From the NCBI GenBank assembly GCA_964566505.1, contig CAZMIM010000003.1:16463-80462 (forward strand): a DNA stretch of 64,000 nucleotides, written 5' to 3'. A model generated the notes under the pieces. The model did not search any database. It was not told the DNA's origin and saw nothing but the letters and a program-made list of their open reading frames with translations. This stretch comes from an uncultured Candidatus Saccharibacteria bacterium (GTDB lineage: Bacteria > Patescibacteriota > Minisyncoccia > Phycocordibacterales > PCTT01). Position numbers and translations under genes: made by a program. This document shows positions 6,747 through 47,159 of this stretch, in pieces (within the stretch, counting starts at the first letter, position 1; every line of letters starts with the position of its first letter).

Positions 6747-6776
6747 AAACCCCGCGGATGCGGGGTTTTTGCTATT
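6747..6776 (-). terminator. intrinsic terminator downstream of ftsZ
   Basis: AAAACCCCGCGGATGCGGGGTTTTTGC hairpin with flanking T/A runs. Confidence 0.55.
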
Positions 6777-7983
6777 TAAGCTTGCTTCGTCTTAGGAACG
6801 CTGGAACCGCGTCCCATTCATCGTCGTCATCCTTTTTATCCTCTTCTTTCTTGTCTTTTCGCTCTACTTTTCCTTTTGTGACTTTCTCTACTGCGTCATA
6901 CATGTCTTTTTTCTTTTTGTCTTCTTTGGTTTCTTCTTCCTCTTTTTTCTCCTCTTTTTCGTCATTTGCGGCAATAGTTGAGCCAAAGAGTGGTTGGCTA
7001 TTTCCTGTGCCGTGGATTACTGCTCCTTCAGGGAATCCTGATGCGATTACAGTAACCTTAACCTCATTCTTCTTGAGCTTCTCATCCTTAATAGCACCAA
7101 AGATAACTTTTGCATTTGGATCGATTGATTCAGTAATAATCTTTGCAGCTTCTTGGATTTCGTGCATCGCAAGATCTTCACCTCCAGCGATGGCAAATAG
7201 TACTCCTTTAGCTCCATCGATTGATACGTCAAGTAATGGTGATGAGATTGCCATTTGCGCAGCCTCTGTTGCTCGGTTGTCTCCATTTGCTTTTCCGATA
7301 CCCATGAGAGCAGAACCTGCATTTTCCATAACAGAACGGATGTCTGCGAAGTCCACGTTAATGATACCTGGAGTAGTGATAAGGTCAGAGATTCCTTCTA
7401 CGGCCTCTCGTAGTACCTCATCTGCCATTGCAAATGCTTCTGTTGCAGTAGTTTCCTTCTTTACAGTTTGAAGTAGTCGGTCGTTTGGAATAACGATAAG
7501 TGCGTCCACTTCTCTTTGGAGTGCCTCGAGTCCCGCTGTTGCGATACGCATTCTTTGTGTTCCTTCAAAGAAGAATGGCTTTGTCACTACACCAACAGTA
7601 AGTGCTCCAAGCTCCCGTGCTGTCTTTGCAACCACAGGGCTTGCTCCAGTACCAGTACCACCTCCCATTCCGGCTGTGATAAATACCATGTCAGCACCTT
7701 TGAGTGCTCCTTGGATTTCTTCTTTTGTTTCTTCTGCTGCTCGTTGTCCGAGCTCTGGGTTCATACCAGTACCAAGCCCTTTGGTAAGGTTTTTACCGAT
7801 ATGAATTTTCTTTTTAGCTTTTGAGTGATGCAGGTCTTGTGCATCTGTATTAACCGCGATGAATTCAACACCTCCAACTTTTGAACGCACCATGTGGTTT
7901 ACGGCATTACCTCCAGAACCACCGTTTCCTACGACTTTGATTCGTGCAAATGTTTCAACTGCGGGTTCGATTTTTTTGGACAT
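6772..7983 (-). CDS. ftsZ: cell division GTPase FtsZ
   Basis: GGGTGTG tubulin signature and NTDAQ motif; K/E-rich linker and conserved C-terminal peptide [12 protein letters not shown]. Confidence 0.95.
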
Positions 7984-14424: not shown

Positions 14425-14840
14425 ATATGAAAAAAGAATATATGTTCACATACGCGCCATTTGCTTTCGTTTGCGTGCATATGAGGGTTACATATACCTC
14501 GTTTTCTAGTAATAAGCACATATATAATGTGCGAAGGTGAGTATAGCACAAGGCAAGCCAAATACAATACTATATATATGAAGGGTTACTATTCCACATT
14601 TTGTGTTGAAAACGCTTGTTTTTTCTAAAAATACATGTATACTGTGCGACAAGAAGATTTAGAAAAAGATTGAGTTGAGGAACAGTCTTTTAAAGCCCAT
14701 TTGTAGGTGTGGGTGCAGCTCGTATATTTTCTATATAAGGCGGGGTGTAAAAAACTACTTTTTTATAAATCACAAAATGAGAGGAGACAGAGCCTTTGAG
14801 GGTATCTGTGTCGTTTCTTTTTTACAAAGAACACAAATAT

Positions 14841-17800
14841 ATGCAACAAAAAGTGTTTTCGCGGTACAAAAAACCGCTGACTTCGTATCCTAACTTTGTT
14901 GAAAACCAGCTCAGTTCATACACTGACCTTGTGGAGAAAGGTATTGCAGACCTTTTCCGAGAGTTTTCACCAATCGAGGACTATTCAGGGAAGAAATTCC
15001 TTTTCGAATTCAAAAGCATTGAGCTAGGAGAGCCAAAGTTTGATGAATTCTACGCAAAGCGTGAGCAACTTACATATGACGCACCGCTTCGCGCAAAGGT
15101 AAAGCTTACAAATAAGCAACTAGGGACAGAGAAAGAGCAAGAAATCTTTATTGCCGACTTCCCAATGCAGACAGACCACGGAACGTTCATTATCAATGGT
15201 ATTGAGCGTGTAATCGTGCCACAGCTTATCCGTTCATTCGGAGTACTTTTCAATATTAATGAAGTACGTGGAAAGCGAAAATTTGGTGCAAAGATTATTC
15301 CTGCACGGGGTGCATGGGTAGAGTTTGAGACCGATCACAACGACGCAATGTTTGTTCGTATCGATCGAAAGCGAAAATTCCCAATCACATCATTTTTGCG
15401 AATCTTTGGAGTAGATAGCGTGGAAGACATGAAGAAACTCTTCAAAGGAAATGACGATGTTCTAAAAACACTCGAGGCTTCACTCGAGCGAGACACTGCA
15501 GAATCAACAGAAGATGCATATGTAGAGGTGTACCGAAAACTTCGAGAAGGAGATATTGTGTCACCTGCAAACGCAAAAGAGTACATCGATGGACTCTTCA
15601 GCGAAGAACGATACGATCTATCAGAGGTAGGACGGTTCCGATTCAACCAACGATTTGGACGAGGAACAGAGAAGAAGGATCTCAACAAGCGAATCGTTGA
15701 TATTGAAGATATCAAGGAGATTATCGCCAACATCGTAAAGCTCAACAACACTCCAGGAGCAACAGAGGATGATATTGATCACCTTGGTTCACGACGAGTA
15801 CGGTTTGTAGGAGAGCTTCTAGAGCAAAGAATGCGTGTTGGTATGACACGAATGAAGCGAAACCTTCAGGACCGAATGTCTACTATCGACTCAGAGACAA
15901 CGCTCCCAATCCAATTCATTAACCCACGACCACTCCAAGCTGCAATCAAGGAGTTCTTTGCAACAAACCAACTTTCACAGTTCATGCAACAAGACAACAC
16001 TCTCCAAGAGATTGAGCACCTACGAACACTTTCAGCTCTTGGGCCAGGAGGTCTTACACGAGAGCGAGCTGGGTTTGAGGTACGAGACGTACACCCATCT
16101 CACTACGGACGAGTATGTCCAATCCACACACCAGAAGGTCCAAACATTGGACTTGTACTTCACCTTGCAACATATGCACGGGTAAATCATTTTGGAATGA
16201 TTGAGACACCATATGCGAGAGTAAAGAATGGAAAAGTTACAGACGAGATTGTGTACATGAACGCATACGAAGAAGAAGACAAAAAGATTGCACACGCAGC
16301 AACACCATATGATGACAGCGGTAAAATCACTGTTGATTTGGTAGAGGTGCGATACCAAGGTGCTCCACGAGTATTTCCTAAAAAGGATGTTGATTTTATT
16401 GATGTGGCTACAAATCAGGCCTTTTCAGTAGCAACATCTATGATTCCATTTCTTAACCACGACGACGCGGCTCGAGCACTCATGGGGTCAAACATGCAAA
16501 AACAAGCAACGCCATGTATCGTGCCAAGCGCACCATTGGTGGCAACAGGTATTGAAGAGCAAGCTGCTCGAGATACAGGACGACTTGTATATGCAAAGAA
16601 TCCAGGAAAGGTAACAGCAGTAGACGCACGAAAGGTTGTTGTAAAAAATACTAAAGGAAAAGACGACACATATAACCTTGTAAACTTTTCAAGAACAAAC
16701 GCAGCTAGCGCATTCCACCAACGACCAGTAGTAAATGTTGGAGACTCAGTAAAGAAAGGTGATCTACTTGCGGACACATCATCTTCAGATAAAGGACAAA
16801 CAGCGATTGGTCAAAACCTTCGCGTTGCCTTTATGACATGGAATGGAGCAAACTACGAGGACGCGATTATTATTTCACAGCGACTTGTAAAAGACTCAAC
16901 ACTCACATCTATTCATGTTGAGGAGTTTACTGTAAACGTTCGAGACACAAAGCTTGGGCCGGAAGTAACGACTCATGACATTCCAAACGTAGGAGAGAGC
17001 AAGCTCAAAAACCTAGACGAAGACGGAATTGTACGAATCGGAGCAGAGGTACGACCTGGAGATATTCTTGTTGGAAAGATTACTCCAAAGGGAGAGACAC
17101 AGCTCACTCCAGAGGAGCGACTTCTTCGTTCTATCTTTGGTGAAAAAGCACGAGACGTAAAAGACTCTTCACTTCGAATGGAGAACGGAAAGCAAGGACG
17201 TGTAATCGGTGTAAAGGTATTTTCTCGAGACAATGGAGACAACCTACAATCAGGAATCATCAAAAAGATTCATATTGAAGTTGCACAGCTTCGAGCTATC
17301 TCTGTAGGAGACAAGCTTGCTGGACGACACGGAAACAAGGGAGTTATCTCAACAATACTTCCTGAGGAGGACATGCCATACATGGAAGACGGAACTCCAA
17401 TCGATATTATTTTGACACCACTTGGAGTGCCAAGCCGAATGAACCTTGGACAGATTCTTGAGCTTCACCTTGGACTTGCAGCACACACACTCAACTATCA
17501 AGCAGTAGTACCACCATTTGTTGGTGCTCAAGATGTTGAGATTGCTGATGAGCTTGAAGAAGCTGGATACCCACGAGACGGAAAGGTAACACTATTTGAC
17601 GGACGAACAGGACGGGCATTTGATCAGCGAATCTCAATGGGGTACATGTACATGCTCAAGCTTCACCACATGGTAGAAGACAAGATTCACCAACGATCAA
17701 TTGGTCCATACTCACTCATTACTCAGCAACCTCTCGGAGGACGAGCACAAAACGGAGGACAACGATTTGGAGAAATGGAGGTGTGGGCACTATTGGGATA

Positions 17801-17996
17801 CGGAGCGGCATACACACTGCGAGAAGTTTTGACAATCAAATCAGATGACATCTTGGGACGTTCAAGCGCCTTTGATTCAATCGTAAAGGGTCGAGATATT
17901 AAACACTCTAATATTCCTGCTTCATTCAATGTGCTTCTAAACAACTTGCGAGCACTTGCGCTCAATGTAGAGCTCAAAGAAACAGCAAACGACTAA
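14841..17996 (+). CDS. rpoB: DNA-directed RNA polymerase subunit beta
   Basis: Conserved beta blocks ([46 protein letters not shown]-like region; C-terminal [13 protein letters not shown]). Start taken at MQQKVFS. Confidence 0.95.
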   Translation: [1051 protein letters not shown]

Positions 17997-18025
17997 GCAT
18001 TTAAAGGAAGCACTAAGAAACTATT

Positions 18026-21000
18026 ATGACTCAAACATATTCACAACCAGGTATGAAGAATCCAGAGGACTTCGACATGATGACAATCAAGCTCGCGTCT
18101 CCTGAGAAGATTCTTGAATGGTCACACGGAGAGGTGACAAAGCCTGAAACAATCAACTACCGAACACAACGAAGTGAAAAGAACGGTCTCTTTGATGAGA
18201 AAATCTTTGGACCAGGGAAAGACTACGAGTGTTACTGTGGAAAATATCGAGGCATCCGATACAAAGGAATCACATGTGAGAAGTGTGGTGTAGATGTAAC
18301 TCGTTCTATTGTTCGACGAGAGCGAATGGGGCACATTGCACTAGCATCTCCTGTGTCACATGTATGGTTCCTACGAAGCATTCCATCACGAATGGCTCTT
18401 GTTCTAGGAGTAACATCATCAGCTCTTGAAAAGGTGATTTACTTTGCGGGGTACATCGTTACAGAAGTAAAAGAGGATGAGCGAGCACGAATCCTAAAAG
18501 AGCTTGCTTCTGAGTACAAGACAAAGCTAAAAACACTTAAAGACGACAAGTCAAAAGATGCACTAAAAGAAGCGTATCTTTCTACAAAGCGAGAAATTGA
18601 AAGTATTCAAAAAGGCTCAATCATTGGAGACACAGAGTACGGACGCTTTGAGATGAAGTATGGAACAATGTTTTCTGCAGATATTGGAGCAGAAGCAATT
18701 TACAATATTTTTAAAGGTATCGACCTTTCAGCTCTTATTACAGAACTTGAGACTCGATATGAAAAAGCAGGAAAGGGAGAGCGAGAGAAAATCAACAAAA
18801 GACTAACGCTTCTTCGTTCAATGCACAAAGCAGGAATTCGTCCTGAATGGATGTTCCTACAACATATTCCGATTCTACCGCCAGCGCTTCGGCCAATGGT
18901 GGCTCTTGATGGTGGACGACACGCTACATCAGATGTAAACGATCTTTATCGTCGTGTAATCAACCGAAACAATCGACTGAAAAAGCTTCAGGCAATCAAT
19001 GCACCGCATGTGATTTTGCGAAACGAGAAGCGAATTCTTCAAGAGGCAGTTGATGCTCTTATCGACAACTCTATCAGACGACGAACTGGTTCATATATGT
19101 CAGGACCTGGTTCTCGACGACCACTTAAGTCACTTTCTGACAACCTAAAAGGAAAGCAGGGAATCTTCCGACAAAACCTACTTGGAAAGCGAGTAGACTA
19201 CTCAGGACGTTCTGTGATTGTGGTTGGTCCGGATCTAGAGCTTGATGAGTGTGGACTTCCAAAGCACATGGCACTTGAGTTATTCCGACCATTTATTATT
19301 TCAGAGCTTCTAGAGCGAGAGCTTGCTTACAACATTCGAGGTGCGAACCGACTTATCGACGAGGGTATTCCAGAAGTATGGGCAATCCTTGAAGATGTGA
19401 TTAAAGACAAGTATGTGCTTCTAAACCGAGCACCAACACTTCACCGACTTGGTATTCAGGCATTCCGACCAGTTCTTATTGAAGGTCTTGCTATTCAAGT
19501 ACACCCACTTGTATGTACAGCCTTTAACGCGGACTTCGACGGTGACCAGATGGCCGTTCACGTACCACTTTCAAAAGAGGCACAGCTCGAGGCCAAGGAA
19601 ATCATGGCTTCTGACAAAAACATTCTAAAGCCAGGAGATGGACGACCAGTGCCATCTGCAAAGATGCTCGATATTCTTTTGGGATGTTATTGGATGACAA
19701 AGATGGTTCCAGGTAAAAAGGGAGAAGGAAAGATTTTCCCAGATCCAAACCACGCTATTTCTGCATTTGATTATGGAGAGGTAGACTTCCGAGCATCAAT
19801 CAAGGTGATGGCAACACATCACAAAAAGTACGAGCAATTCGAAGGAGGACTATTTGAAACAACAGTAGGACGACTTCTATTCAACAGTGTGCTTCCAAAA
19901 GACTTCCCATACATCAACAAAGAAATCGACAAATCACTTATGCATAGTGTGGTTGACGAGCTGATTGAGGTATATGGAACACAGCGTCTTCCAAAGATTC
20001 TCGACAAGATTAAAAACTTTGGATTCAAGTACGCAACATTTGCTGGTATTACATGGGGGCTTGATGATATTCAGGCGCCAGAAGAAAAAGAAAAGATTAT
20101 TGCTGACGCACGAAAGAAAGTAGACGAAGTAGTTGAGCAATTCAACGAAGGTCTTCTATCATCAGATGAGCGAAAGCGAAAGAGTGTTGAGATTTGGCAC
20201 AAGGTAAAGGATGATATTGAGGAGCTTATTCCAAATACACTTGATGACAACGGTTCAGTATATGACATGTGGAAGTCAGGTGCTCGAGGTTCTCTTTCAC
20301 AAATTACTGCTATGGCAGGAATGAAGGGACTTATTGCAAACAACAAGGGAGAAACTATTGAGTTCCCAATTACAACATCTTCAAAAGAAGGACACACACC
20401 TATTGAGTACTTTATTACAACTCACGGTTCACGAAAGGGTCTTACAGACACCGCTCTTAACACAGCGCACGCCGGATATCTTACTCGACGACTGTTTGAC
20501 GTGTCACAAGATGTTGTTGTTACAGAAGATGACTGTAAGAGTAAAGATTCAGTTACAGTACGAGAAGAAAATCTATCAGGTATTACAGTTCCACTTTCAA
20601 AGAATGCTTCAGGACGATTCCTTGCAGCAGACGTAAAAGACGCGAAAGGAAATACTCTATTTAAGAAAGGAGACTTCCTTACAAAGACAGATGCTCTTGC
20701 AATTGAAGAAGCAGGTGTTGAAGAGGTAGAAGTACGTTCACCAATCACATGTGCTACAAAGCAAGGTGTATGTCGTTTATGTTACGGAGTTGACCACGGA
20801 ACAAACGAGCCAGTAGAGCTCGGAGAGGCAGTGGGAACAGTAGCTGCTCAAGCTATTGGAGAGCCTGGAACACAGCTTACTATGCGTACCTTCCACGCCG
20901 GAGGTGCAGCGTCAGTAGGAGGTGACATTACTATGGGTCTTCCACGTGTGGTTGAAATCTTTGAGCGACGAATTCCAAAGAACCCAGCAGTTATCTCACA

Positions 21001-21715
21001 TGTTTCAGGAACAGTGGCTGATATTAAAGACGCAGGTCGCGGAGGAAAGATTATCGAGATTATTCCAGACGAGGAGTACAAGAAAAAGAAACTCAAAAAA
21101 GACGAGAGCGAGATGTACCAGTACCCAGTAAACCTACGACGAATGGTTCTTATCAAGAAGGGAGACCAAGTAGAAAAGGGTCAGATGCTTACTGACGGTT
21201 CTGCTGACCTCAAAGAACTATTCAAGTTTGCAGGAAAAGAGGCAACACAAAACTACATCATTCATGAGATTGGAAAGATTTATGAGGTGCAAGGTGCGCC
21301 AGTATCACGAAAACACATTGAGGTGATTATTCGACAAATGTTCTCACGAGCAAAAGTCAAAAACGCAGGTGATACAGACTTCTCAATCGGACAGGTTGTA
21401 GAAAATGCTGTACTAGAGCGAGTAAACACTAATGCAAAGGATGCAGGTCTAACTCCAGCAAAAGCAGACCCACTGATTATGGGAATTACAGAGGTTGCTC
21501 TGACACGACAAAGTTTCCTATCTGCAGCATCATTCCAGCACACTACTCGTATCCTTATCGATGCAGCAACAAGAGGAACAAAGGATCCACTAAATGGATT
21601 GAAAGAAAATATTATTATCGGACGATTGATTCCTGCAGGAACAGGATTTGAAGGAAGTCAGAAAGCGTCAATGATTGACGAACTGCACCAAGAAGCAGAA
21701 GAGAACGAAGAATAA
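18026..21715 (+). CDS. rpoC: DNA-directed RNA polymerase subunit beta prime
   Basis: N-terminal Zn finger CYCGKYRG..CEKCGV, catalytic NADFDGDQMAVH, trigger loop and bridge helix regions. Confidence 0.95.
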   Translation: MTQTYSQPGMKNPEDFDMMTIKLASPEKILEWSHGEVTKPETINYRTQRSEKNGLFDEKIFGPGKDYECYCGKYRGIRYKGITCEKCGVDVTRSIVRRERMGHIALASPVSHVWFLRSIPSRMALVLGVTSSALEKVIYFAGYIVTEVKEDERARILKELASEYKTKLKTLKDDKSKDALKEAYLSTKREIESIQKGSIIGDTEYGRFEMKYGTMFSADIGAEAIYNIFKGIDLSALITELETRYEKAGKGEREKINKRLTLLRSMHKAGIRPEWMFLQHIPILPPALRPMVALDGGRHATSDVNDLYRRVINRNNRLKKLQAINAPHVILRNEKRILQEAVDALIDNSIRRRTGSYMSGPGSRRPLKSLSDNLKGKQGIFRQNLLGKRVDYSGRSVIVVGPDLELDECGLPKHMALELFRPFIISELLERELAYNIRGANRLIDEGIPEVWAILEDVIKDKYVLLNRAPTLHRLGIQAFRPVLIEGLAIQVHPLVCTAFNADFDGDQMAVHVPLSKEAQLEAKEIMASDKNILKPGDGRPVPSAKMLDILLGCYWMTKMVPGKKGEGKIFPDPNHAISAFDYGEVDFRASIKVMATHHKKYEQFEGGLFETTVGRLLFNSVLPKDFPYINKEIDKSLMHSVVDELIEVYGTQRLPKILDKIKNFGFKYATFAGITWGLDDIQAPEEKEKIIADARKKVDEVVEQFNEGLLSSDERKRKSVEIWHKVKDDIEELIPNTLDDNGSVYDMWKSGARGSLSQITAMAGMKGLIANNKGETIEFPITTSSKEGHTPIEYFITTHGSRKGLTDTALNTAHAGYLTRRLFDVSQDVVVTEDDCKSKDSVTVREENLSGITVPLSKNASGRFLAADVKDAKGNTLFKKGDFLTKTDALAIEEAGVEEVEVRSPITCATKQGVCRLCYGVDHGTNEPVELGEAVGTVAAQAIGEPGTQLTMRTFHAGGAASVGGDITMGLPRVVEIFERRIPKNPAVISHVSGTVADIKDAGRGGKIIEIIPDEEYKKKKLKKDESEMYQYPVNLRRMVLIKKGDQVEKGQMLTDGSADLKELFKFAGKEATQNYIIHEIGKIYEVQGAPVSRKHIEVIIRQMFSRAKVKNAGDTDFSIGQVVENAVLERVNTNAKDAGLTPAKADPLIMGITEVALTRQSFLSAASFQHTTRILIDAATRGTKDPLNGLKENIIIGRLIPAGTGFEGSQKASMIDELHQEAEENEE

Positions 21716-21763
21716 GGTTCTTGGAAAAGCCGTGGTAGCACTACCACATCAAAAGATTGTGTA

Positions 21764-23503
21764 ATGTCTGACGTAGATCGTATAAAAGAACGACTCAGTA
21801 TTGTTGATGTGCTTTCCTCATATATAACGCTTGAAAAGGCGGGAATGGGATATAAAGCACGATGCCCTTTTCATGCTGAAAAAACTCCGTCATTTCACAT
21901 ATCTGCAGACCGTGGACTCTACTACTGTTTTGGGTGTGGTGCGAAGGGTGATATTTTCAGCTTCGTACAAGACTATGAAAGCACAGACTTTCAGGGAGCA
22001 CTTAAGATACTTGCGGACAAGGCGGGCATAGAGCTTTCAGGAGGACGCTCAGATGGAACAAGCAAAGACGAGCGAGACAGAATGCATAATGTGCTCGAGC
22101 GAGCGACATTGTTCTTTGAATCAAATATACGCGACAACAAAGTAGTACAAGACTATCTTCAGTCTCGTGGTATTAAACCTGATGCTGTTTCAAATTTCAG
22201 GATTGGATACGCGCCTGACTCATGGGATGCTCTGTATGAGCACTTGCTTAAAGAGGGTGTTATAGAGAAAGACATGGAGACAGTTGGTCTTATAAAGAGA
22301 AAGGAGAAGCAGACGGATAATTCTCGGGGGTATTATGATCGGTTTCGTAACCGTATTATGTTCCCAATCACTGATTCGAGCGGGCGAGTTGTTGGATTTT
22401 CTGGTAGAACACTTGATAAAAGCGACTCAGTTCCAAAATACATAAACTCACCAGAGACACCTCTTTATAACAAGTCTGATGTGCTCTTTGGTTACGACAA
22501 AGCGCGCGAGCATATCAAAAAGGCCAAGCAATGTATTTTGGTAGAAGGTCAGATTGATTTGGTACTTCTGCATCAAGAAGGCTTCCCATACTCTGTGGCA
22601 GTATCTGGTACAAGCTTTACCGGCTCTCACTTGAAAAAGATTATGAGACTTGCGAATACGCTGGTGCTCGCATTTGATAGAGACAGGGCAGGAGTGGCAT
22701 CAATGATGCGTTCTGCTACGCTAGCACTTTCAATGGGTATGGATGTAAAGACGCTTATATTTCCAGAGAAGAGTGACCCAGCAGATATTGTGAGCTCTGA
22801 CATTGAGAAGTGGAAGAAGATTCACAGAGAGGCGCTTCATGTAATAGATGTATTGCTTAGAGAAATAAGAGTTCGCGCATCAAGCGAGCGTGACTATTGG
22901 CTCCGTGTTTCAAAGCATGTACTTCCGCTTATCGCGGTAATGCCAAATGCAATTGATCGCTCACACTTTATAAAGAGAGTGCGTGAAGAGACAGATATAC
23001 CAGAAGATGCGGTAGCAAGTGAGATAGAGAAGCTTATGAAGGGCGCTGTACAAAAGGAAAAAGTAGAGGCGCCACAGAATGCTACTCAAAAACCTTTTGT
23101 TTCTAGAAAAGAATCTATTCTAAAGACACTACACGCTATTATTCTTTGGCAAGACACATCAAAGGAAGGCAGTATTGACACAAAGGTTCTTGTAAATAAT
23201 ATTCAAGAGATTGTAGGTGAGGGAGCTTCGGCACCACCGTCTGAAGAAGAACTTAATGAATATGTTTTTAGGGCAGAGCAGTTTTATGAAAACAATGATT
23301 CATTAGAGAAAGATGTAGAAGAGCTAGTTCTTGGACTTAGGGAAGAATCTATCACAGAGCGTTTAGGAGAGCTTACAAAGGAAATACGTTCTGCTGAGAA
23401 AGATAAAAATATTGAATTGAAGAAGCAATTATTAGCTAATTACCAAGAATTATCAGTCTCATTAGAGAATGTAAAACAAGAGATAAAAAGTCGAATTATT
23501 TAA
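21764..23503 (+). CDS. dnaG: DNA primase
   Basis: CHC2 zinc finger (CPFHAEKTPSF...YYCFGCGAKGD), TOPRIM domain (ILVEGQIDLV); C-terminal helical region. Confidence 0.9.
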   Translation: MSDVDRIKERLSIVDVLSSYITLEKAGMGYKARCPFHAEKTPSFHISADRGLYYCFGCGAKGDIFSFVQDYESTDFQGALKILADKAGIELSGGRSDGTSKDERDRMHNVLERATLFFESNIRDNKVVQDYLQSRGIKPDAVSNFRIGYAPDSWDALYEHLLKEGVIEKDMETVGLIKRKEKQTDNSRGYYDRFRNRIMFPITDSSGRVVGFSGRTLDKSDSVPKYINSPETPLYNKSDVLFGYDKAREHIKKAKQCILVEGQIDLVLLHQEGFPYSVAVSGTSFTGSHLKKIMRLANTLVLAFDRDRAGVASMMRSATLALSMGMDVKTLIFPEKSDPADIVSSDIEKWKKIHREALHVIDVLLREIRVRASSERDYWLRVSKHVLPLIAVMPNAIDRSHFIKRVREETDIPEDAVASEIEKLMKGAVQKEKVEAPQNATQKPFVSRKESILKTLHAIILWQDTSKEGSIDTKVLVNNIQEIVGEGASAPPSEEELNEYVFRAEQFYENNDSLEKDVEELVLGLREESITERLGELTKEIRSAEKDKNIELKKQLLANYQELSVSLENVKQEIKSRII

Positions 23504-23512
23504 TATATACAA

Positions 23513-24940
23513 ATGGCAAAAGCAAAAACAACCACAAAAAAGAATACTAAGTCTAAAGCAAAAAAATCTACAAAGACTACTAAAAAAGCGGTCAAAACCC
23601 GCCTGAAACGACGCGTAGTCGGGCAGGAAACCGTAAAGAAGGTAGCAAAAAAGTCTAGCAAAAAAGCTACGCCAAAGAAAAAAACAACCATAAAAAAGAA
23701 AGCTACACCAAAAAAGAAGGTAGCTAAGAAAAAAACAACAACTAAGAAAAAGAGTGTTACAAAAAAAGCTGTGAAAAAGACAGCTAAAGCGGCTACACCA
23801 AAAAAGAAAGTTGCAAAAAAGACAGCAACTAAAAAGGAAAAAGTTTTAACACCAAAACAAAAGCGTGCTGAACGAAGAAAGAAAGAGAAAATCAAACTTC
23901 TAACTGGAATGGGGCAGGAGAGAGGCTTTGTTACATACGATGAGATTCTAAAAGTATTTAATACTATTGAGGATGATATTGTTCTTCTTGAAGAAATATA
24001 TGAGACATTCAATGAAGTAGGTATTGATGTTATTGAAGGAGGAGGACTTCTTTCTCTTGGAAATGAAGATGATGATAGTTCTAGTCCATATAAATCAAAA
24101 GGTTCGTCTGTACATGACTCTATTCAGATGTATTTAAAGGAGATTGGTAAGTATGAGCTCATTGATGCAGATATGGAGAAAGATCTTGCGCGTCGTATTG
24201 AGGCGGGAGATGAAGAGGCAAAGAATGTTTTGGCACGAGCAAACCTTCGTCTTGTGGTATCTATTGCAAAGAAATATGCATCTCGAAGCTCAAACCTAAC
24301 ACTTCTTGATCTTATCCAAGAAGGTAACCTAGGACTCTTTAAAGCGGTAGATAAATTCGACTATTCTCGAGGATTTAAATTCTCAACATATGCTACATGG
24401 TGGATTCGCCAAGCTATCACTCGGGCGCTTGCAGACCAGTCACGAACTATTCGTATTCCTGTTCACATGGTGGAGACGATTGCAAAATACAAAAGAGTGG
24501 TGCGACAGCTATCACAAGACCTTGGACGCGACCCGCTTCCTGAGGAGATTGCAATGGAGATGGGGCTTGATATCAAGAAGATTCACACCATTGAAAAGAT
24601 TAAGCAAAACACAGTATCACTTGAAACTCCCGTAGGAGACGCAAGCGACGACAGCTCAACTCTAGGGGACTTTATTGCGGATGAGCATTTGGACTCACCA
24701 GACAAAGAAGCATCACACAGAATTCTTCAAGAGCATGTAACGCAGATTCTTGATGATCTTACGCCAAAAGAGCGAAAGATTCTCGAGATGCGCGTTGGAC
24801 TTACTGACGGTATCTCTCACACACTTGAAGAGGTAGGTAAAGAATTCTCAGTGACTCGTGAGCGTATCAGACAGATTGAAGCAAAGGCCCATGAAAAAAT
24901 AAGACAACACGAAAAATCTCAGTGGCTTAAGAACTTTTAA
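23513..24940 (+). CDS. rpoD: RNA polymerase sigma factor (sigma-70/RpoD family) with lysine-rich N-terminal extension
   Basis: Regions 1.2-4.2 present ([67 protein letters not shown]). The first 120 or so aa are AKK/PKK repeats instead of an acidic region 1.1. Confidence 0.88.
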
Positions 24941-24944
24941 GGTA

Positions 24945-24980
24945 AAAACGGCTCATCTTCTAGAAGATGAGCCGTTTGTT
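24945..24980 (+). terminator. intrinsic terminator hairpin AAACGGCTCATCTTC-TAGA-GAAGATGAGCCGTTTGTT
   Basis: Perfect 15-bp stem plus T-rich tail immediately after the rpoD stop codon. Member of the dispersed GCTCA..TGAGC hairpin family. Confidence 0.75.
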
Positions 24981-24985
24981 ATAAT

Positions 24986-27979
24986 GTGTATATGAGTAAT
25001 TCAGGGGTGTTTACAAAACTCTATAATGGCCTCAACAAAGCCCAAAAGAAAGCCGTTGATACCATAGATGGTCCTGTGATGGTGGTTGCTGGGCCTGGAA
25101 CAGGTAAAACTACTGTTTTAACGCTTCGTATAGCAAATATACTTTTGCAAACAGATACAGCGCCTGAGCAGATTATCGCGCTTACATTTACAGAATCAGG
25201 AGTAGTGTCGATGCGTAAAAAACTCTATTCAATAATTGGAGCTGACGCATACAGAGTGCATATTCATACATTCCATAGTTTTTCTAATGAGGTAATAGGG
25301 AGGTTTCCTGATTATTTTCCACGTATTATTGGTTCACGTCCTGCAACAGAAATAGACACTATTCGTATTGTAGAAGAGGTTTTGGAAAATGGAACTTTTG
25401 AAAAACTGCGACCATATGGAGATAGTTCATATTATGTACGACCGATTCTCTCTGCAATATCACACCTAAAGCGTGATGCTGTTACTCCTGATGCTTTTTC
25501 TGAAATAACAAAAGAAGAAAAAGAAGCCTTTGAATCAACGCCAGATCTATATTATGAAAGCGGTGTTCATGTTGGGAAAATGCGTGGAAAATATACTCGT
25601 CAGGCAAAATATATCGAAAAAAACGAAGAGCTTGAGGTGGTGTATCGTGAATATGAAGACGCTCTCCAAAGACAAAGCCTCTATGACTTTGACGACATGA
25701 TTCTTGAGGTAATAAAGAAAATGGAATCAGACGATGAGTTTAAACTTGTTCTCCAAGAGGAGTATCAATATGTTTTGGCTGATGAGCATCAAGACGCAAA
25801 CAATTCACAAAATACACTACTAGAGCTTTTGTGCGACTTTTATGAAAGACCGAATCTATTTATTGTGGGAGATGAGAAGCAAGCTATTTTCCGCTTTCAA
25901 GGCGCATCGCTTGAGAACTTTTTATACTTTAAAGATCGCTATGAAGATGTAGAGCTTATTGCGCTTACTCACAACTATCGCTCTACACAAACTGTATTGG
26001 ACAGTGCTCATGAGCTAATACAAAACAACAAAGAGCTTGATCATGTTCCTTTGGTGAGTGCTAAATCTCTTTTAGAGCAAGACATACGGCTTTCTATTTA
26101 TCCGCATGTACACGATGAATACGCGGGTCTTGTGTCTAATATATTGGAGCTTCAGGAAAAAGGAGTACAGCTAGATGAGATTGCTGTTTTGTTTCGAGAC
26201 AACAAAGAAGCACTTATGATTGCCCCATATTTTGATAGAGCAGGCATCACATACTCTGTGGCTGGTGATATGGCGCTCTTTTCAAATGAAGATATAACAA
26301 AGCTGGTAACAATTATTCGTGCAGTTTCTGCAGGAAATGATGAACGGCTACTACTAGAGATGCTATCTGTAGATTTTCTTGGCGTGCATCATATAGATGT
26401 ATATAAAGCGCTTGAATATGCGAGAAAGGATAAAAAGACTCTTCTTGAGGTGCTTCTTGATAAAAAACTTCTTTCGCGCGCTAACGTTAAGGATGTAGAT
26501 ACTATTTGTGGTGTGGCAGAGCTTTTTGATAGGTTTGTTTCAAAAGCAAAAAACAAATCACTTCTTTCTGTTTTGGAGCTTATCGCTCGAGAGTCTGGAT
26601 TTATTGATAGCCTTTTGGGTAATAGTGGTTCTGTGGAGAGGTTGAAGTTTGTGGATGGTTTGTATCGCGAGGCAGAGAATGTTTCAAAGAGCAACGAAGA
26701 AGCAAAGCTTGCTGATTTTGTGGAGTATATAGACATGCTTGGTGCGTACAATATACGCCCAACGGTTTCATCTCCACGTACAGATGGAGTAAGGCTTATG
26801 ACCGCACACAAATCAAAAGGATTAGAGTTTGATTATGTTTTCATTTCAGGACTTGTGGACGGTGTATGGGGAGGAAGACGTTCTAGAACACTTTTTGAAA
26901 CCACTGATTCTCGTGTCGCTCTCTCATCATCTACAGAAGACGATGATGAGCGCAGGCTCCTTTATGTAGCGCTCACACGAGCACGACAAGGTGTGTATTT
27001 GAGCTATCCGCTACAAGATGGAGATAGTAGAGATAGAATCGCTTCTCGGTTTATTGGAGAGCTCAAAGATGAGCTTATAGACTCTGTAGAGATAGAGGCT
27101 GATACCAAAACAATTGAAAAGAAATATCATAAGCGTGTTGATACGCGAGCAAGCGTATATGAAAAAGAATATGTACAAAAGCGTTTCTTAGAACGAGGTC
27201 TTTCTGTAACGGGTATAAACAACTACTTATCATGTCCGTGGAAATATTTTTATCAAAATATTGTTCGTATTCCTACTCCTCAAAATAAGTTTTTGATATT
27301 TGGTACGGCAGTGCATAAGGCGCTTCGGTACTATTTTGACGCACACAAAGAGGGGAAAGATATCTCACCTGAAGATGCATATAAATATTTTGTGGATGTT
27401 CTGCCAAGCTATCTTATGTCACGAACAGATTATCGCGAGCTAAAAACAAAAGGAGAAAAGGCAATCATTGGGTATCTACAATCAGCAAAAGAAGGTTGGG
27501 AAAAGGATATACATAATGAGCTTCGTATCAATGGAATTATGCTTCCTGTGAAATATAAAAAGGAGAATTTTGAAGTGCCACTTACTGGTGCTCTTGATAA
27601 AGTTGTAGTAGGGGATGATGGTCTGCGTGTGGTTGACTATAAGACAGGAAAGCCAAAGTCACGAAATGACATAGAAGGTAAAACAAAATCATCTAATGGG
27701 GACTATAAAAGACAGCTTGTCTTTTATAAACTTCTTCTTGATGAGTACAGAAATGGGAAGTTTAATATGACAGAGGGTGAGATTTCTTTTGTAGAGCCTG
27801 ACCCCAAGGGAGAGTATAGACATGAGGTATTTGAAGTTACTTCTGATGAGGTTCGGGAGCTTAAAGAGCAAGCACAAGAAGTGGCTGGAGAGATATATAC
27901 GCTAGCCTTTTGGAATAAGCGATGCGATGACAAAGATTGTGATTTTTGTGCACTTCGTAACAAAACAATTCAAAAATAA
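24986..27979 (+). CDS. UvrD/PcrA-type superfamily 1 helicase fused to a C-terminal PD-(D/E)xK nuclease with an Fe-S cysteine cluster (AddA/AddB-like)
   Basis: Walker A AGPGTGKTT, UvrD motifs through 26.9 kb. C-terminal VDYKTGKPK, QLVFYKLL (QhxxY) and CPWKY...CDDKDCDFC form a Cas4/AddB-like 4-Cys nuclease module. The ATG at 24992 is the probable true start. Confidence 0.75.
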   Translation: MYMSNSGVFTKLYNGLNKAQKKAVDTIDGPVMVVAGPGTGKTTVLTLRIANILLQTDTAPEQIIALTFTESGVVSMRKKLYSIIGADAYRVHIHTFHSFSNEVIGRFPDYFPRIIGSRPATEIDTIRIVEEVLENGTFEKLRPYGDSSYYVRPILSAISHLKRDAVTPDAFSEITKEEKEAFESTPDLYYESGVHVGKMRGKYTRQAKYIEKNEELEVVYREYEDALQRQSLYDFDDMILEVIKKMESDDEFKLVLQEEYQYVLADEHQDANNSQNTLLELLCDFYERPNLFIVGDEKQAIFRFQGASLENFLYFKDRYEDVELIALTHNYRSTQTVLDSAHELIQNNKELDHVPLVSAKSLLEQDIRLSIYPHVHDEYAGLVSNILELQEKGVQLDEIAVLFRDNKEALMIAPYFDRAGITYSVAGDMALFSNEDITKLVTIIRAVSAGNDERLLLEMLSVDFLGVHHIDVYKALEYARKDKKTLLEVLLDKKLLSRANVKDVDTICGVAELFDRFVSKAKNKSLLSVLELIARESGFIDSLLGNSGSVERLKFVDGLYREAENVSKSNEEAKLADFVEYIDMLGAYNIRPTVSSPRTDGVRLMTAHKSKGLEFDYVFISGLVDGVWGGRRSRTLFETTDSRVALSSSTEDDDERRLLYVALTRARQGVYLSYPLQDGDSRDRIASRFIGELKDELIDSVEIEADTKTIEKKYHKRVDTRASVYEKEYVQKRFLERGLSVTGINNYLSCPWKYFYQNIVRIPTPQNKFLIFGTAVHKALRYYFDAHKEGKDISPEDAYKYFVDVLPSYLMSRTDYRELKTKGEKAIIGYLQSAKEGWEKDIHNELRINGIMLPVKYKKENFEVPLTGALDKVVVGDDGLRVVDYKTGKPKSRNDIEGKTKSSNGDYKRQLVFYKLLLDEYRNGKFNMTEGEISFVEPDPKGEYRHEVFEVTSDEVRELKEQAQEVAGEIYTLAFWNKRCDDKDCDFCALRNKTIQK

Positions 27980-38036: not shown

Positions 38037-38420
38037 TTATTTCTTTTCTTTAAAATCAAGAGAGCATGAGTTGATACAGAATCTTTTTCCTGTAGTTTCT
38101 TCTGGTCCATCATCAAAAACATGACCAAGATGTGCTCCACAGTACGCACAAGAGACTTCTTTTCTTTTCATTCCGTGCGATAGATCTTCTGAGAGTGTGA
38201 TGTTTTCTGTATTTTCAGGTTTATCAAAGCTAGGCCAACCTGTGTGTGAATCAAACTTTGAATCAGAAGAAAAGAGTTCTCTGCCACATACGACACATGT
38301 ATACATACCAGACTCTTTGTGTTTGTAGTATTTGCCCGTGTATGCTGGCTCGGTGCCTTTGTTTTGAGTTACTTCGTATTGCTCGGGTGTGAGCTTTTCT
38401 TTTAGTTCGTCTTTATTCAT
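38037..38420 (-). CDS. msrB: peptide-methionine (R)-S-oxide reductase MsrB
   Basis: CVVCGRELF..GWPSF..RKEVSCAYCGAHLGHVFDDGP has both CxxC pairs and the catalytic Cys. Start at MNKDEL. Confidence 0.88.
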   Translation of the reverse strand: MNKDELKEKLTPEQYEVTQNKGTEPAYTGKYYKHKESGMYTCVVCGRELFSSDSKFDSHTGWPSFDKPENTENITLSEDLSHGMKRKEVSCAYCGAHLGHVFDDGPEETTGKRFCINSCSLDFKEKK

Positions 38421-38442
38421 ATATACATTGTATAATAAAAAC

Positions 38443-39567
38443 ATGAGATTATTTTCAAAACTAGTAATAGTGGCATTTTTATTTGCGCCATTTCTAACAA
38501 GCGCACAGGCACTACACCAAGACACACAAGGTGTGTGGCGTGCACAAGTTGTTGAGGCCACTGAGTCTGAAGAAGTTATTTTGGATGGCCTAGGTTTTTC
38601 TTCAGAGAAGCAGACAATAACAGCTCGTATATTAGAAGGGGAAAGAGAAGGGGATGAAGTTGTTTTTGAAAATGACTATATACAGCTTAAAAAAGGGGAT
38701 CGATTTTACCTGAATTATTTGGTAACAATTCAGGGAAGTGAGATTTATTCTGTTCGTGAAAAAGACAGGGCTTTTGAAATGTATGCACTTTTTGCACTTT
38801 TTGTATTGGTAGTCATTTTCTTTGGGGGTAAGCAAGGTTTTCGCTCACTTTTGTCACTTGTTGGTAGTATTTTTGTAGTTTTGTATTTTTTGGTTCCTGG
38901 TTTGGTATCGGGCTATTCGCCAGTTCTATTGAGCGTTCTGGTGGCGGGTGGAGTGCTATTCTTTGCAATTTTTGTGACCCATGGTTTCAATAGACGCTCA
39001 TTGATAGCATTCGTGGGTACATTTTCTGCCGTTGTTATAACAGGTATTATTGCGCTTGTTTCTATAAAGACCACAGGACTTACTGGTTTTTCAACAGACG
39101 AGAGTGTGTATCTAAACATTAGTACTGGTGGGAGTCTTAATTTTGTAGGTCTTTTGCTTGCTGGAGTGATTATTGGTTCTCTGGGAGCACTTGATGATAT
39201 TGCTGTAACTCAAGTTGCTGTGGTGCGAGAGCTCTTTGCTGCAAACAAAAAAATAAATCCAAAAGAGGTATACGAGAGAGCAATGCGCGTAGGTAAAGAG
39301 CATGTGGGAGCGCTTGTGAACACACTTGTTCTTGCATACACAGGAGCATCTTTGCCACTACTTCTTTTGTTTTCACTTTCTGAGTCTTCATCTTTGATGA
39401 TTATGAACAGTGAAATATTTGCAGCTGAAATTGTTCGCTCTCTTGTGGGAAGCATAGGTCTTGTACTTACAGTACCTATCACAACACTCCTTGCTGTAAT
39501 GTTTCTTAAAAACAAAGACCTAAAACCACTTTCTGATGACCACGGACACCATCATCACCATCACTAA
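38443..39567 (+). CDS. YibE/F-like membrane protein with natural poly-His C-terminus
   Basis: Signal peptide, extracytoplasmic N-domain, then about 8 TM helices; ends DDHGHHHHHH. Confidence 0.5.
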   Translation: MRLFSKLVIVAFLFAPFLTSAQALHQDTQGVWRAQVVEATESEEVILDGLGFSSEKQTITARILEGEREGDEVVFENDYIQLKKGDRFYLNYLVTIQGSEIYSVREKDRAFEMYALFALFVLVVIFFGGKQGFRSLLSLVGSIFVVLYFLVPGLVSGYSPVLLSVLVAGGVLFFAIFVTHGFNRRSLIAFVGTFSAVVITGIIALVSIKTTGLTGFSTDESVYLNISTGGSLNFVGLLLAGVIIGSLGALDDIAVTQVAVVRELFAANKKINPKEVYERAMRVGKEHVGALVNTLVLAYTGASLPLLLLFSLSESSSLMIMNSEIFAAEIVRSLVGSIGLVLTVPITTLLAVMFLKNKDLKPLSDDHGHHHHHH

Positions 39568-39570
39568 TTC

Positions 39571-40065
39571 ATGAGTATAGAGTACGAAAAAGCAGTATTT
39601 GCAGGAGGATATTTCTGGGGCATGGAAGAGCTTTTCAGGAAGCTTCCCGGTGTTGTTGATACACAAACTGGATATGCAGGTGGAGACAATACCGACCCAA
39701 CATATGAGAATCATCCTGGTCATGCAGAAGCTCTAGAGATTACTTACGACTCAGAAAAGATTTCATACAAAGAGCTCTTAGACTTTTTCTTTCGTATACA
39801 CAATCCTACCACTAAAAATCAGCAAGGAAACGATATTGGCGAGTCGTACCGTTCTGCTATTTTCTATTCTAATGAAGAAGAAAAAAATGAAGCACAAGCT
39901 TTTATTGAGATAGTGAATGCGTCTGGTCGATGGAAAGACAAGGTGGTAACTACGCTCGAGCCACTTGGAGATTTTCATGAAGCAGAAGAGTATCACCAAG
40001 ATTATCTCCAGAAAAATCCGGGAGGATATACATGTCATGCAGTATTTTTCGACACATATCTATAG
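39571..40065 (+). CDS. msrA: peptide-methionine (S)-S-oxide reductase MsrA homolog (catalytic Cys replaced by Tyr)
   Basis: [12 protein letters not shown] vs canonical GCFWG; the rest ([24 protein letters not shown]) is strongly MsrA. Confidence 0.8.
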
Positions 40066-45908: not shown

Positions 45909-45991
45909 AATATATAGTATGTGTCAAGAATTAGGTTCTAACTCCCAATTGGGGTATAAAAAATAACCGCCTTGTTAAGCGATTATTTTCT

Positions 45992-46330
45992 TGGCTCCGC
46001 GGGCGGGATTCGAACCTGCAACCTACCGGTTACACGTATCCTAATATTTCTAAAAGGGGTGGACTATATCATCATCCTCTGAATATTCAGGAGGATGCAA
46101 GGCGCTTCCCAATGTTACGTAATCTGTTACGTAACAAGAGTACTCCCAAAAGGGATAGTCTCTGAACCTTCTTACCTAAATAGGTAAGCTTGGCTGCTGA
46201 TTACCCACGACTTTACGTTTGGGCTTCCAGACAATTCACCTTGTTTTCGACCTACATTTCTGTAGGAAGCTGCTATTTGAAACGAAGTTTCGTGTTACAG
46301 CCGGTTGCTCTACCATTGAGCTACCGCGGA
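45992..46330 (-). tRNA. tRNA gene interrupted by a group I intron in the anticodon loop (intron about 46033-46296); identity Asn(GUU) favoured, Thr(UGU) possible
   Basis: 5' exon TCCGCGGTAGCTCAATGGTAGAGCAACCGGCT(GT) and 3' exon (TAA)CCGGTAGGTTGCAGGTTCGAATCCCGCCCGCGGAGCCA form a full cloverleaf with discriminator G and encoded CCA. The intervening roughly 264 nt carries group I core elements R-like GTTCAGAGACTAT and S-like GATATAGTCC. Confidence 0.8.
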
Positions 46331-46548
46331 ATATTTTTTATCCGCGGTAGCTCAATGGCATCACGGAATATAAAAAGATCACGAACCAATAATGATTCGT
46401 GGGGAAATAGTATCAAAAAAAAGTGGATATTGGAAGCGTGATATAATAGGTACATAACAAGAGTATGTTTTTGGTTTTTGAAAATTTAAACATTTAAAAT
46501 TGTTTAGAAATTAAAAATTGAAAATTAGAAATTGGAACAAAGTGACTT

Positions 46549-46784: not shown

Positions 46785-47159
46785 ATGACAAATTTCAATA
46801 TAAAAACTACAAATATCGAAATGACAGACGCAATTAGCTCTTATCTAGACAAGCGTCTTTCAAAGCTTGATAAATTTATGAAAAAGGATGAGCCAGCAGT
46901 AGGGCAGGTAGAGATTGGAACCATTACTCGCGGTCAAAATTCAGGAGATATTTTCCGCGCAGAGATAAACCTTTCTCTTGGTGGACACTCATTCAGAGCT
47001 GAGTCTGAGAAAGATGATTTATATAAGGCAATAGATGATGCACAAGATGAGATGATACGACAGCTTAAGTCATTTAAAAACAAACAACGCTCAATGGAGA
47101 GAAAAGGAGGATATCAGCTAAAGAAACTTCTAAAGTTTAGAGGACGTAAACTTCGTTAA
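46785..47159 (+). CDS. hpf: ribosome hibernation promoting factor (HPF/RaiA/YfiA family)
   Basis: MTNFNIKTTNIEMTDAISSYLDKRLSKLDKF is the typical HPF beta-alpha start; 124 aa. Confidence 0.8.
   Translation: MTNFNIKTTNIEMTDAISSYLDKRLSKLDKFMKKDEPAVGQVEIGTITRGQNSGDIFRAEINLSLGGHSFRAESEKDDLYKAIDDAQDEMIRQLKSFKNKQRSMERKGGYQLKKLLKFRGRKLR

Follow-up and report, generated by a model that had tools for sequence, protein, structure and literature searches.

The primary sigma factor gene described here lies in a stretch of 64,000 nucleotides (nt) of contig CAZMIM010000003.1, hereafter called the window, at positions 23513-24940 of the forward strand. Its product is the primary (group 1, RpoD/SigA) sigma factor of a Paceibacteria/Parcubacteria (Patescibacteria) genome. 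The initial annotation of this DNA had singled out positions 23513-23900, which form the 5' end of the open reading frame (ORF), and had read them as the beginning of a primary sigma factor with a very lysine-rich N-terminal stretch. Both parts of that reading are borne out, the sigma factor by the Pfam regions 1.1 to 4 and the alignment with Bacillus subtilis SigA, and the stretch by the 47 lysines and the net charge of +48 found in amino acids (aa) 1-110 of the same ORF. The gene encodes a complete, compact Firmicute-type group 1 sigma factor with about 110 added N-terminal residues. Pfam places region 1.2 at aa 202-235, region 2 at aa 240-312, region 3 at aa 321-398 and region 4 at aa 413-465, with PF00140, PF04542, PF04539 and PF04545 all scoring above their gathering cutoffs. 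The top NCBIfam matches are RpoD models, all of which stay below the strict equivalog cutoffs (434 bits vs. 572 for NF006666), as is expected of a divergent phylum.

The tail had also been thought to replace the acidic region 1.1, and this view is refuted by the data. The canonical acidic region 1.1 is retained, and the tail is added ahead of it rather than substituted for it. This follows from the Pfam match, the SigA alignment, the coverage of the NCBIfam model and the predicted helices. PF03979, the Pfam family of region 1.1, a region specific to group 1 sigma factors, matches aa 123-178 with 44 bits against a cutoff of 22.5 (E = 2e-11). The segment aa 128-475 aligns with residues 18-369 of the 371-aa B. 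subtilis SigA (7ckq_F, E = 5e-104) with no large gaps, and aa 116-475 cover positions 5-368 of the 370 positions of NF006666, the Firmicute-type RpoD model. AlphaFold2 (AF2), run on an alignment of 60 sequences, predicts a helical domain at aa 114-174 with a predicted local distance difference test score (pLDDT) of about 90 and helices at aa 114-137, 142-148 and 156-169. Within region 1.1 the charge is divided, helix 1 being basic (aa 111-137, net +7) and the remainder acidic (aa 138-176, net -10). By hand count, the 47 residues aligned to region 1.1 of B. subtilis carry a charge of -8 here vs. -9 in Bacillus. Nor does the tail run up to region 1.2, as had been proposed, since region 1.1 (about aa 111-176) and a linker (aa 177-201) intervene. 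The linker contains an NEDDDSSS motif and, taken together with the acidic part of region 1.1, brings aa 138-201 to a net charge of -12. Past the linker, AF2 returns a normal sigma body.

Lysine accounts for 43% of aa 1-110, serine plus threonine for 24%, alanine for 13% and proline for 3%. The tail is built mainly of lysine, threonine, alanine and valine, and its earlier description as a lysine/alanine/proline sequence does not fit. Counted up to aa 122, it holds 49 lysines, 6 arginines, 3 glutamates and no aspartate, with an isoelectric point (pI) of 11.9, and clusters of KK or KKK recur every 3-6 residues along its length. Across the other 41 ORFs of the window, the lysine content is 6.9% (binomial P of ~1e-25 for the tail), and the next lysine-richest 110-aa stretch contains 23 lysines vs. 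47 in the tail. The maximum net charge per 30 aa reaches +16 in the tail vs. at most +12 in any other ORF of the window, the next most basic segments attaining only +11 to +12. AF2 assigns aa 1-110 a pLDDT of about 40 and no secondary structure. A proteome-wide habit of carrying lysine tails was considered and rejected, as RpoB, RpoC, DnaG, UvrD, FtsZ and others encoded in the window do not have one. The second most basic segment in the window is the C-terminal end of a 124-aa ORF at 46785-47159 (+), with net +12 over 30 aa (...KSFKNKQRSMERKGGYQLKKLLKFRGRKLR); by eye, this ORF resembles a ribosome-hibernation (HPF/RaiA-type) protein. The probable FtsZ at 6772-7983 (-) has a mixed-charge C-terminal stretch rich in lysine, aspartate and glutamate, and its richest 110 aa, with 23 lysines, rank second in the window.

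When searched alone, the tail has no Pfam family match at E ≤ 10 and no meaningful match in the PDB, where the one spurious hit (E = 0.5) is a de novo designed protein. With these searches empty, a common origin of the tail with H1, Hc1 or a protein of solved structure was rejected. The label "histone-H1-like" given in the initial annotation is apt for the charge and fails for the ancestry. At the DNA level, the tail is 54% A and has a guanine-plus-cytosine (GC) content of 35%. An ATPKKK unit occurs three times, encoded in frame by GCTAC(A/G)CCAAA(A/G)AA(A/G) at 23666, 23702 and 23792, with spacings of 36 and 90 nt. The idea that the tail is encoded by tandem repeats holds for one weak array detected by Tandem Repeats Finder (period 18, 4.3 copies, 63% matches); the remaining repeats are dispersed and imperfect, and a clean, slippage-prone tandem repeat was rejected on these grounds. 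Twelve A-runs of 6-7 nt lie within 23513-23842, and the whole window has one run of A or T of at least 8 nt. The A-runs of the tail are potential sites of transcriptional or replicative slippage, which would truncate or shift an essential sigma factor.

Table 1. Features of the sigma factor gene and its upstream neighbor (positions are those of the window)
Feature	Position	Strand	Basis or remark
dnaG (primase)	21764-23503	+	Pfam DnaG domains; TAA stop 9 nt before the sigma ATG, same frame
AT-rich 12 nt ahead of the start codon (TAATATATACAA)	23501..23512	+	No Shine-Dalgarno sequence
Primary sigma factor gene (rpoD/sigA)	23513-24940	+	Single ORF, 475 aa
Polycationic N-terminal extension, predicted disordered	23513..23842 (aa 1-110)	+	Composition, AF2, relatives
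Sigma region 1.1	23843..24040 (aa 111-176)	+	Pfam PF03979, SigA alignment, NF006666, AF2 helices, charges
Acidic/serine-rich linker between regions 1.1 and 1.2, predicted disordered	24041..24115 (aa 177-201)	+	pLDDT <50
Sigma regions 1.2, 2, 3 and 4 and stop codon	24116..24940	+	Pfam, PDB sigma matches

The gene order rpoB-rpoC-dnaG-rpoD-uvrD/PD-(D/E)XK helicase-nuclease (14796-27979) places dnaG and rpoD directly behind the genes for the large subunits of RNA polymerase (RNAP). The order rpoC-dnaG-rpoD-uvrD is kept in the two nearest relatives (P0002 in locus L079 and P0004 in locus L081) and is also seen in locus L080. The linkage of dnaG and rpoD, a housekeeping context that marks group 1 sigma factors, is found both in the window and in relatives.

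The frame of the tail is open across all 122 codons, while frames 2 and 3 hold many stops, and 26 of 20,000 mononucleotide shuffles of the tail DNA keep the frame open. Ahead of region 1.2, just three codons in this frame could serve as starts, namely ATG at aa 1, GTG at aa 87 and ATG at aa 133, and a Shine-Dalgarno sequence was found at none of them. The ATG at aa 133 falls within helix 1 of region 1.1, which a start there would truncate; therefore translation begins upstream of about aa 111. The strongest argument that the tail is translated is the recurrence of in-frame lysine-rich tails in homologues, and in the orthologues the ATG sits exactly where the lysine-rich stretch begins. Taken together, the sequence comparisons make translation from the ATG at 23513 well supported, and the automatic annotation of start codons in these genomes appears right. 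The initial annotation had named two circumstances that would undermine the tail, an internal start with a ribosome-binding site and a frameshifted separate ORF. Neither holds, given that aa 87 and aa 133 are without a Shine-Dalgarno sequence and that the tail and the sigma body share one continuous frame. A separate or frameshifted ORF for the tail was also rejected on account of the closed frames 2 and 3. The antisense ORF at 23500-24012 (170 aa, rich in phenylalanine and leucine) is regarded as a mirror artefact of the lysine codons, and the same view was taken of three minus-strand hairpins within the gene that resemble terminators.

The promoter scan called no canonical promoter for rpoD. 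The hexamer TAATAT, which matches TATAAT at four of six positions and so lies below the threshold of at least 5/6, ends 6 nt before the rpoD ATG. Most genes in the window likewise have no Shine-Dalgarno sequence, such motifs being rare. A TATAAT-like hexamer (at least 5/6) ends 6-10 nt before the ATG at 10 of 39 gene starts and at 3 of 224 internal ATGs. Because such hexamers are enriched at gene starts over internal ATGs, this genome probably makes many mRNAs with little or no leader, and for rpoD itself a leaderless transcript or coupling to dnaG is possible. Examples of starts preceded by the hexamer are 24992, 33186, 34681 (-), 43389 and 61744. For the UvrD-like gene, the likely start is the ATG at 24992, not the GTG at 24986 taken by the ORF finder.

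A broader view of the tail was obtained from the 120 best database homologues, all from metagenome-assembled genomes (MAGs) of Patescibacteria and 119 of them full-length, in which the tails were anchored on the start of region 1.1. Their source names include Campbellbacteria, Wolfebacteria, Parcubacteria and Paceibacterota. Of the 119 full-length homologues, 114 begin with a lysine-rich tail that is in frame and 30-118 aa long, with a median length of 62 aa, a median net charge of +27, a median charge density of 0.44 per residue and a mean lysine content of 40%. Tail length and charge are correlated across the homologues (r = 0.87). Among GTDB species representatives, tails occur in MAGs labelled Kaiser-, Adler-, Taylor-, Zambryski- and Nomurabacteria and Paceibacterota, usually just downstream of dnaG. 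The comparison of RpoD N-termini across relatives that had been suggested at the outset shows that the tail is widespread and that its length, which the initial annotation had supposed might vary between strains, differs between species, the N-terminal extensions of relatives ranging from 7 to 118 aa. Judged from these sequences, such a tail characterises the primary sigma factors of the whole Paceibacteria/Parcubacteria lineage.

The tail and the core have diverged to very different degrees. Compared with the nearest relative (L079), 312 of 364 core positions are identical (86%), vs. 39 of 99 in the tail (39%), where 17 columns are gapped. An [ST]PKK motif occurs in only 24 of the 114 homologue tails; the tail described here has three TPKK. 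What selection appears to maintain is the density of charge, about +0.44 per residue, together with the disorder; sequence and length are free to drift. Conservation of composition, position and frame, but not of sequence or length, is the pattern expected of a functional disordered region. When the tail-less core was used as the query, a substantial minority of the matches listed (150 representatives of 50%-identity clusters) had strongly basic N-termini; therefore such sigma extensions are not confined to this clade. One 50%-identity cluster of basic-tailed sigma factors includes MAGs labelled Bacilli and Clostridia.

In five close homologues (P0007, P0009, P0042, P0105 and P0108), region 1.1 is preceded by no more than 7-11 neutral residues. 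The mean net charge of their cores is -16, vs. -7.4 in the others. P0108 and locus L024 come from the MAGs "Parcubacteria group bacterium SW_4_46_8" and "SW_6_46_9", a naming series that we take to denote a salt-crust metagenome. The tail-less L024 also encodes the most acidic DnaG of 64 loci, with a pI of 4.99. Loss of the tail may track acid-shifted, possibly halophilic proteomes, in which intracellular salt would screen charge.

Precedents for N-terminal regions that are basic or contain lysine repeats exist among the primary sigma factors of Actinobacteria and Bordetella. Experiments on sigma A of Mycobacterium smegmatis show a disordered N-terminal region in which the initial 60 residues carry a positive charge and an acidic stretch comes next, with a mechanism that is undefined (PMC11656743). 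The mycobacterial sigma A-N (M. smegmatis and M. tuberculosis) resembles the present case in being a lineage-specific addition to a primary sigma factor with a positive, disordered extreme N-terminus of about 60 aa and a subsequent acidic segment (PMC11656743). The same succession of a basic, disordered N-terminus (aa 1-110, +48) and an acidic segment (aa 138-201, -12) is found here. In Actinobacteria, however, a folded region 1.1 is missing, its place being taken by an N-terminal region that is unfolded throughout; the present protein retains a region 1.1 of the B. subtilis kind, which is predicted to be folded. The basic part here is also about twice as long as that of mycobacterial sigma A-N and, at +48, far more charged.

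In Streptomyces HrdB, the lysine repeats are located between regions 1.1 and 1.2 and not at the N-terminus. Repeats of this kind, reported for Streptomyces HrdB and B. pertussis RpoD, have been grouped with those of DNA-binding proteins, with the suggestion that they are typical of GC-rich genomes (Strzalka et al. 2017, PMC5714199). The likeness to the tail consists in lysine-repeat stretches within primary sigma factors. The tail, too, contains several short clusters of lysine within low-complexity sequence on a protein that acts in DNA transactions, as can be read from its sequence. In contrast to the association with GC-rich genomes, the window has about 40% GC (36-49% per 2-kb block, mostly ~40%) and the tail DNA 35%, and the tail contradicts the published suggestion that lysine repeats mark GC-rich genomes. 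A paper on HrdB acetylation was considered as a further parallel and set aside, for it concerns K259, which lies between regions 1.2 and 2 and is not part of a lysine repeat.

Similar tails are found outside sigma factors. Lysine-repeat tails stabilise TopA-DNA and HU-DNA complexes, Streptomyces TopA and HupS being among the proteins with such repeats (PMC5714199). The tails of actinobacterial TopA, HupS and HupB are likewise disordered and lysine-rich and add nonspecific DNA affinity or processivity to a DNA-transaction protein. They differ in being C-terminal, rich in alanine and proline (PAKKA-type) and attached to a topoisomerase or HU, and they show no sequence homology to the sigma tail. 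In Streptomyces DdbA, which binds and condenses DNA, a lysine-rich, H1-like domain is joined to a DksA-like one that binds RNAP (PMC3643593). DdbA shares with the present protein an N-terminal lysine-rich segment on a protein that works at RNAP; its partner domain is DksA-like and acts at the secondary channel, and its segment consists of S/T-A-A-K-K pentapeptides, whereas the partner here is the initiation factor sigma. The C-terminal domain of eukaryotic H1 and Chlamydia Hc1/Hc2 are similar in being disordered, with about 40% lysine and S/TPKK-type motifs, and the sigma tail differs from them in being threonine-rich and proline-poor (3% proline) and in having no family match. We found no published description of sigma tails in Patescibacteria (Candidate Phyla Radiation) in a literature coverage that is incomplete across journals. 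What is new here is the extreme N-terminal placement before a retained, folded region 1.1, the occurrence in a low-GC uncultured radiation, and the unusual length and charge.

These features show a sigma factor with an intact region 1.1 and an added polycationic arm predicted to be disordered, and we give about an even chance to this arm binding polyanions, most likely DNA, by sequence-nonspecific electrostatics. DNA is favored as the target because lysine-repeat tails stabilise TopA-DNA and HU-DNA complexes and because sigma works on DNA. The arm would raise the affinity of sigma and of the holoenzyme for the nucleoid and for promoter-flanking DNA, which could help sigma to stay on DNA, to find promoters or to form more stable early promoter complexes. 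The usual gatekeeping in the DNA channel would still fall to region 1.1. The more acidic cores of the tail-less homologues and the acidic DnaG of L024 are consistent with an electrostatic role, and the DNA-binding or nucleoid-tethering role envisaged in the initial annotation is plausible by analogy.

Several points weigh against the DNA-binding arm. The binding is inferred from composition and analogy, and RNA, polyphosphate or acidic surfaces of proteins could be equally good partners for a tail of +48. In M. smegmatis sigma A, the basic residues 1-60 were dispensable for the one partner tested, and their function is unassigned (PMC11656743). The rpoD start has no Shine-Dalgarno sequence and only a weak -10-like hexamer, and a shorter isoform may arise from the GTG at aa 87. 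The halophile link draws on one named lineage and four unnamed sequences.

Among the other explanations, the tail might regulate in cis or act on RNAP, by folding onto the acidic region 1.1 and linker or by docking on acidic beta/beta' surfaces, and would then modulate how sigma binds core, how region 1.1 is placed in or ejected from the DNA channel, or how stable sigma is. We consider this unlikely. The tail is directly joined to region 1.1, whose C-terminal part is, like the linker, acidic (aa 138-201, -12), which would suit such a contact, yet the charges are unbalanced, with +48 facing about -12 locally, and a length of 30-118 aa without a conserved motif fits a specific docking site poorly. 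The high charge density of the tails would also allow binding to another polyanion (RNA or ribosomes, or polyphosphate), or the formation of condensates that concentrate the transcription machinery in very small cells. Lysine-rich disordered regions of other bacterial proteins are reported to bind RNA and polyphosphate (polyphosphate-binding proteins; RhlE helicase). Nothing, however, ties the present tail to RNA or polyphosphate specifically; sigma acts on DNA, and no other RNA-handling protein in the window has such a tail, which leaves this second explanation improbable in our view.

The rapid divergence of tail sequence and length, the twelve A-runs with the dispersed repeats, and the otherwise normal sigma factors of some tail-less relatives would be in line with a neutral low-complexity expansion by slippage in A-rich DNA, with no selected function. 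Such an origin is nonetheless hard to reconcile with a tail found in nearly all close homologues (114/119) and in several candidate lineages, always in frame, N-terminal, lysine-rich and of similar charge density; drift is not expected to hold a frame open or a composition constant at these divergences, and we hold a neutral expansion to be quite improbable. Least credible is an annotation artefact, in which the true start would lie downstream, e.g., at the GTG at aa 87, and the lysine stretch would be mostly an untranslated A-rich spacer. The weak signals at the ATG at 23513 noted above would agree with it, but most genes in the window have no Shine-Dalgarno sequence either, and the signals at aa 87 and aa 133 are no better. 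With aa 133 lying within region 1.1, an open frame retained in so few shuffles and the orthologous ATGs placed right at the start of the lysine-rich stretch, we judge an artefact to be very improbable.

In the usual view, region 1.1 mimics DNA by its acidic character and prevents free sigma from binding DNA. In this very large uncultured radiation, an arm of +30 to +50 sits right before that domain. Should the arm bind DNA, sigma might be on DNA even in its free form, and both the search for promoters and the sigma cycle could depart from the E. coli/Bacillus model. As a bolder and rather unlikely proposal, the primary sigma factor of Paceibacteria might itself serve as a histone-like nucleoid coat: the arm would hold sigma or the holoenzyme permanently on DNA, would partly substitute for the sparse transcription factors and nucleoid proteins of reduced genomes, and would be discarded only where charge screening, possibly in salt-in halophiles, makes it useless. 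Extensions of 7-118 residues on nearly identical cores offer a natural series for the tuning of RNAP by a disordered polycation.

Some further features were observed elsewhere in the window. A full-length group I intron (Rfam RF00028, 80.9 bits) at 46040-46295 (-) interrupts a tRNA gene with flanks at about 45990-46340. On the joined flanks ARAGORN calls a tRNA, most often Tyr(GTA), with acceptor arms TCCGCGG and CCGCGGA; this identity and the junction are candidates, and ARAGORN run on the raw window missed the interrupted gene. The ORF at 38389-39567 (+) ends in six histidines (…DDHGHHHHHH), a natural poly-His tail that is possibly metal-binding, and the ORF directly after it (39571-40065) is MsrA-like by eye.

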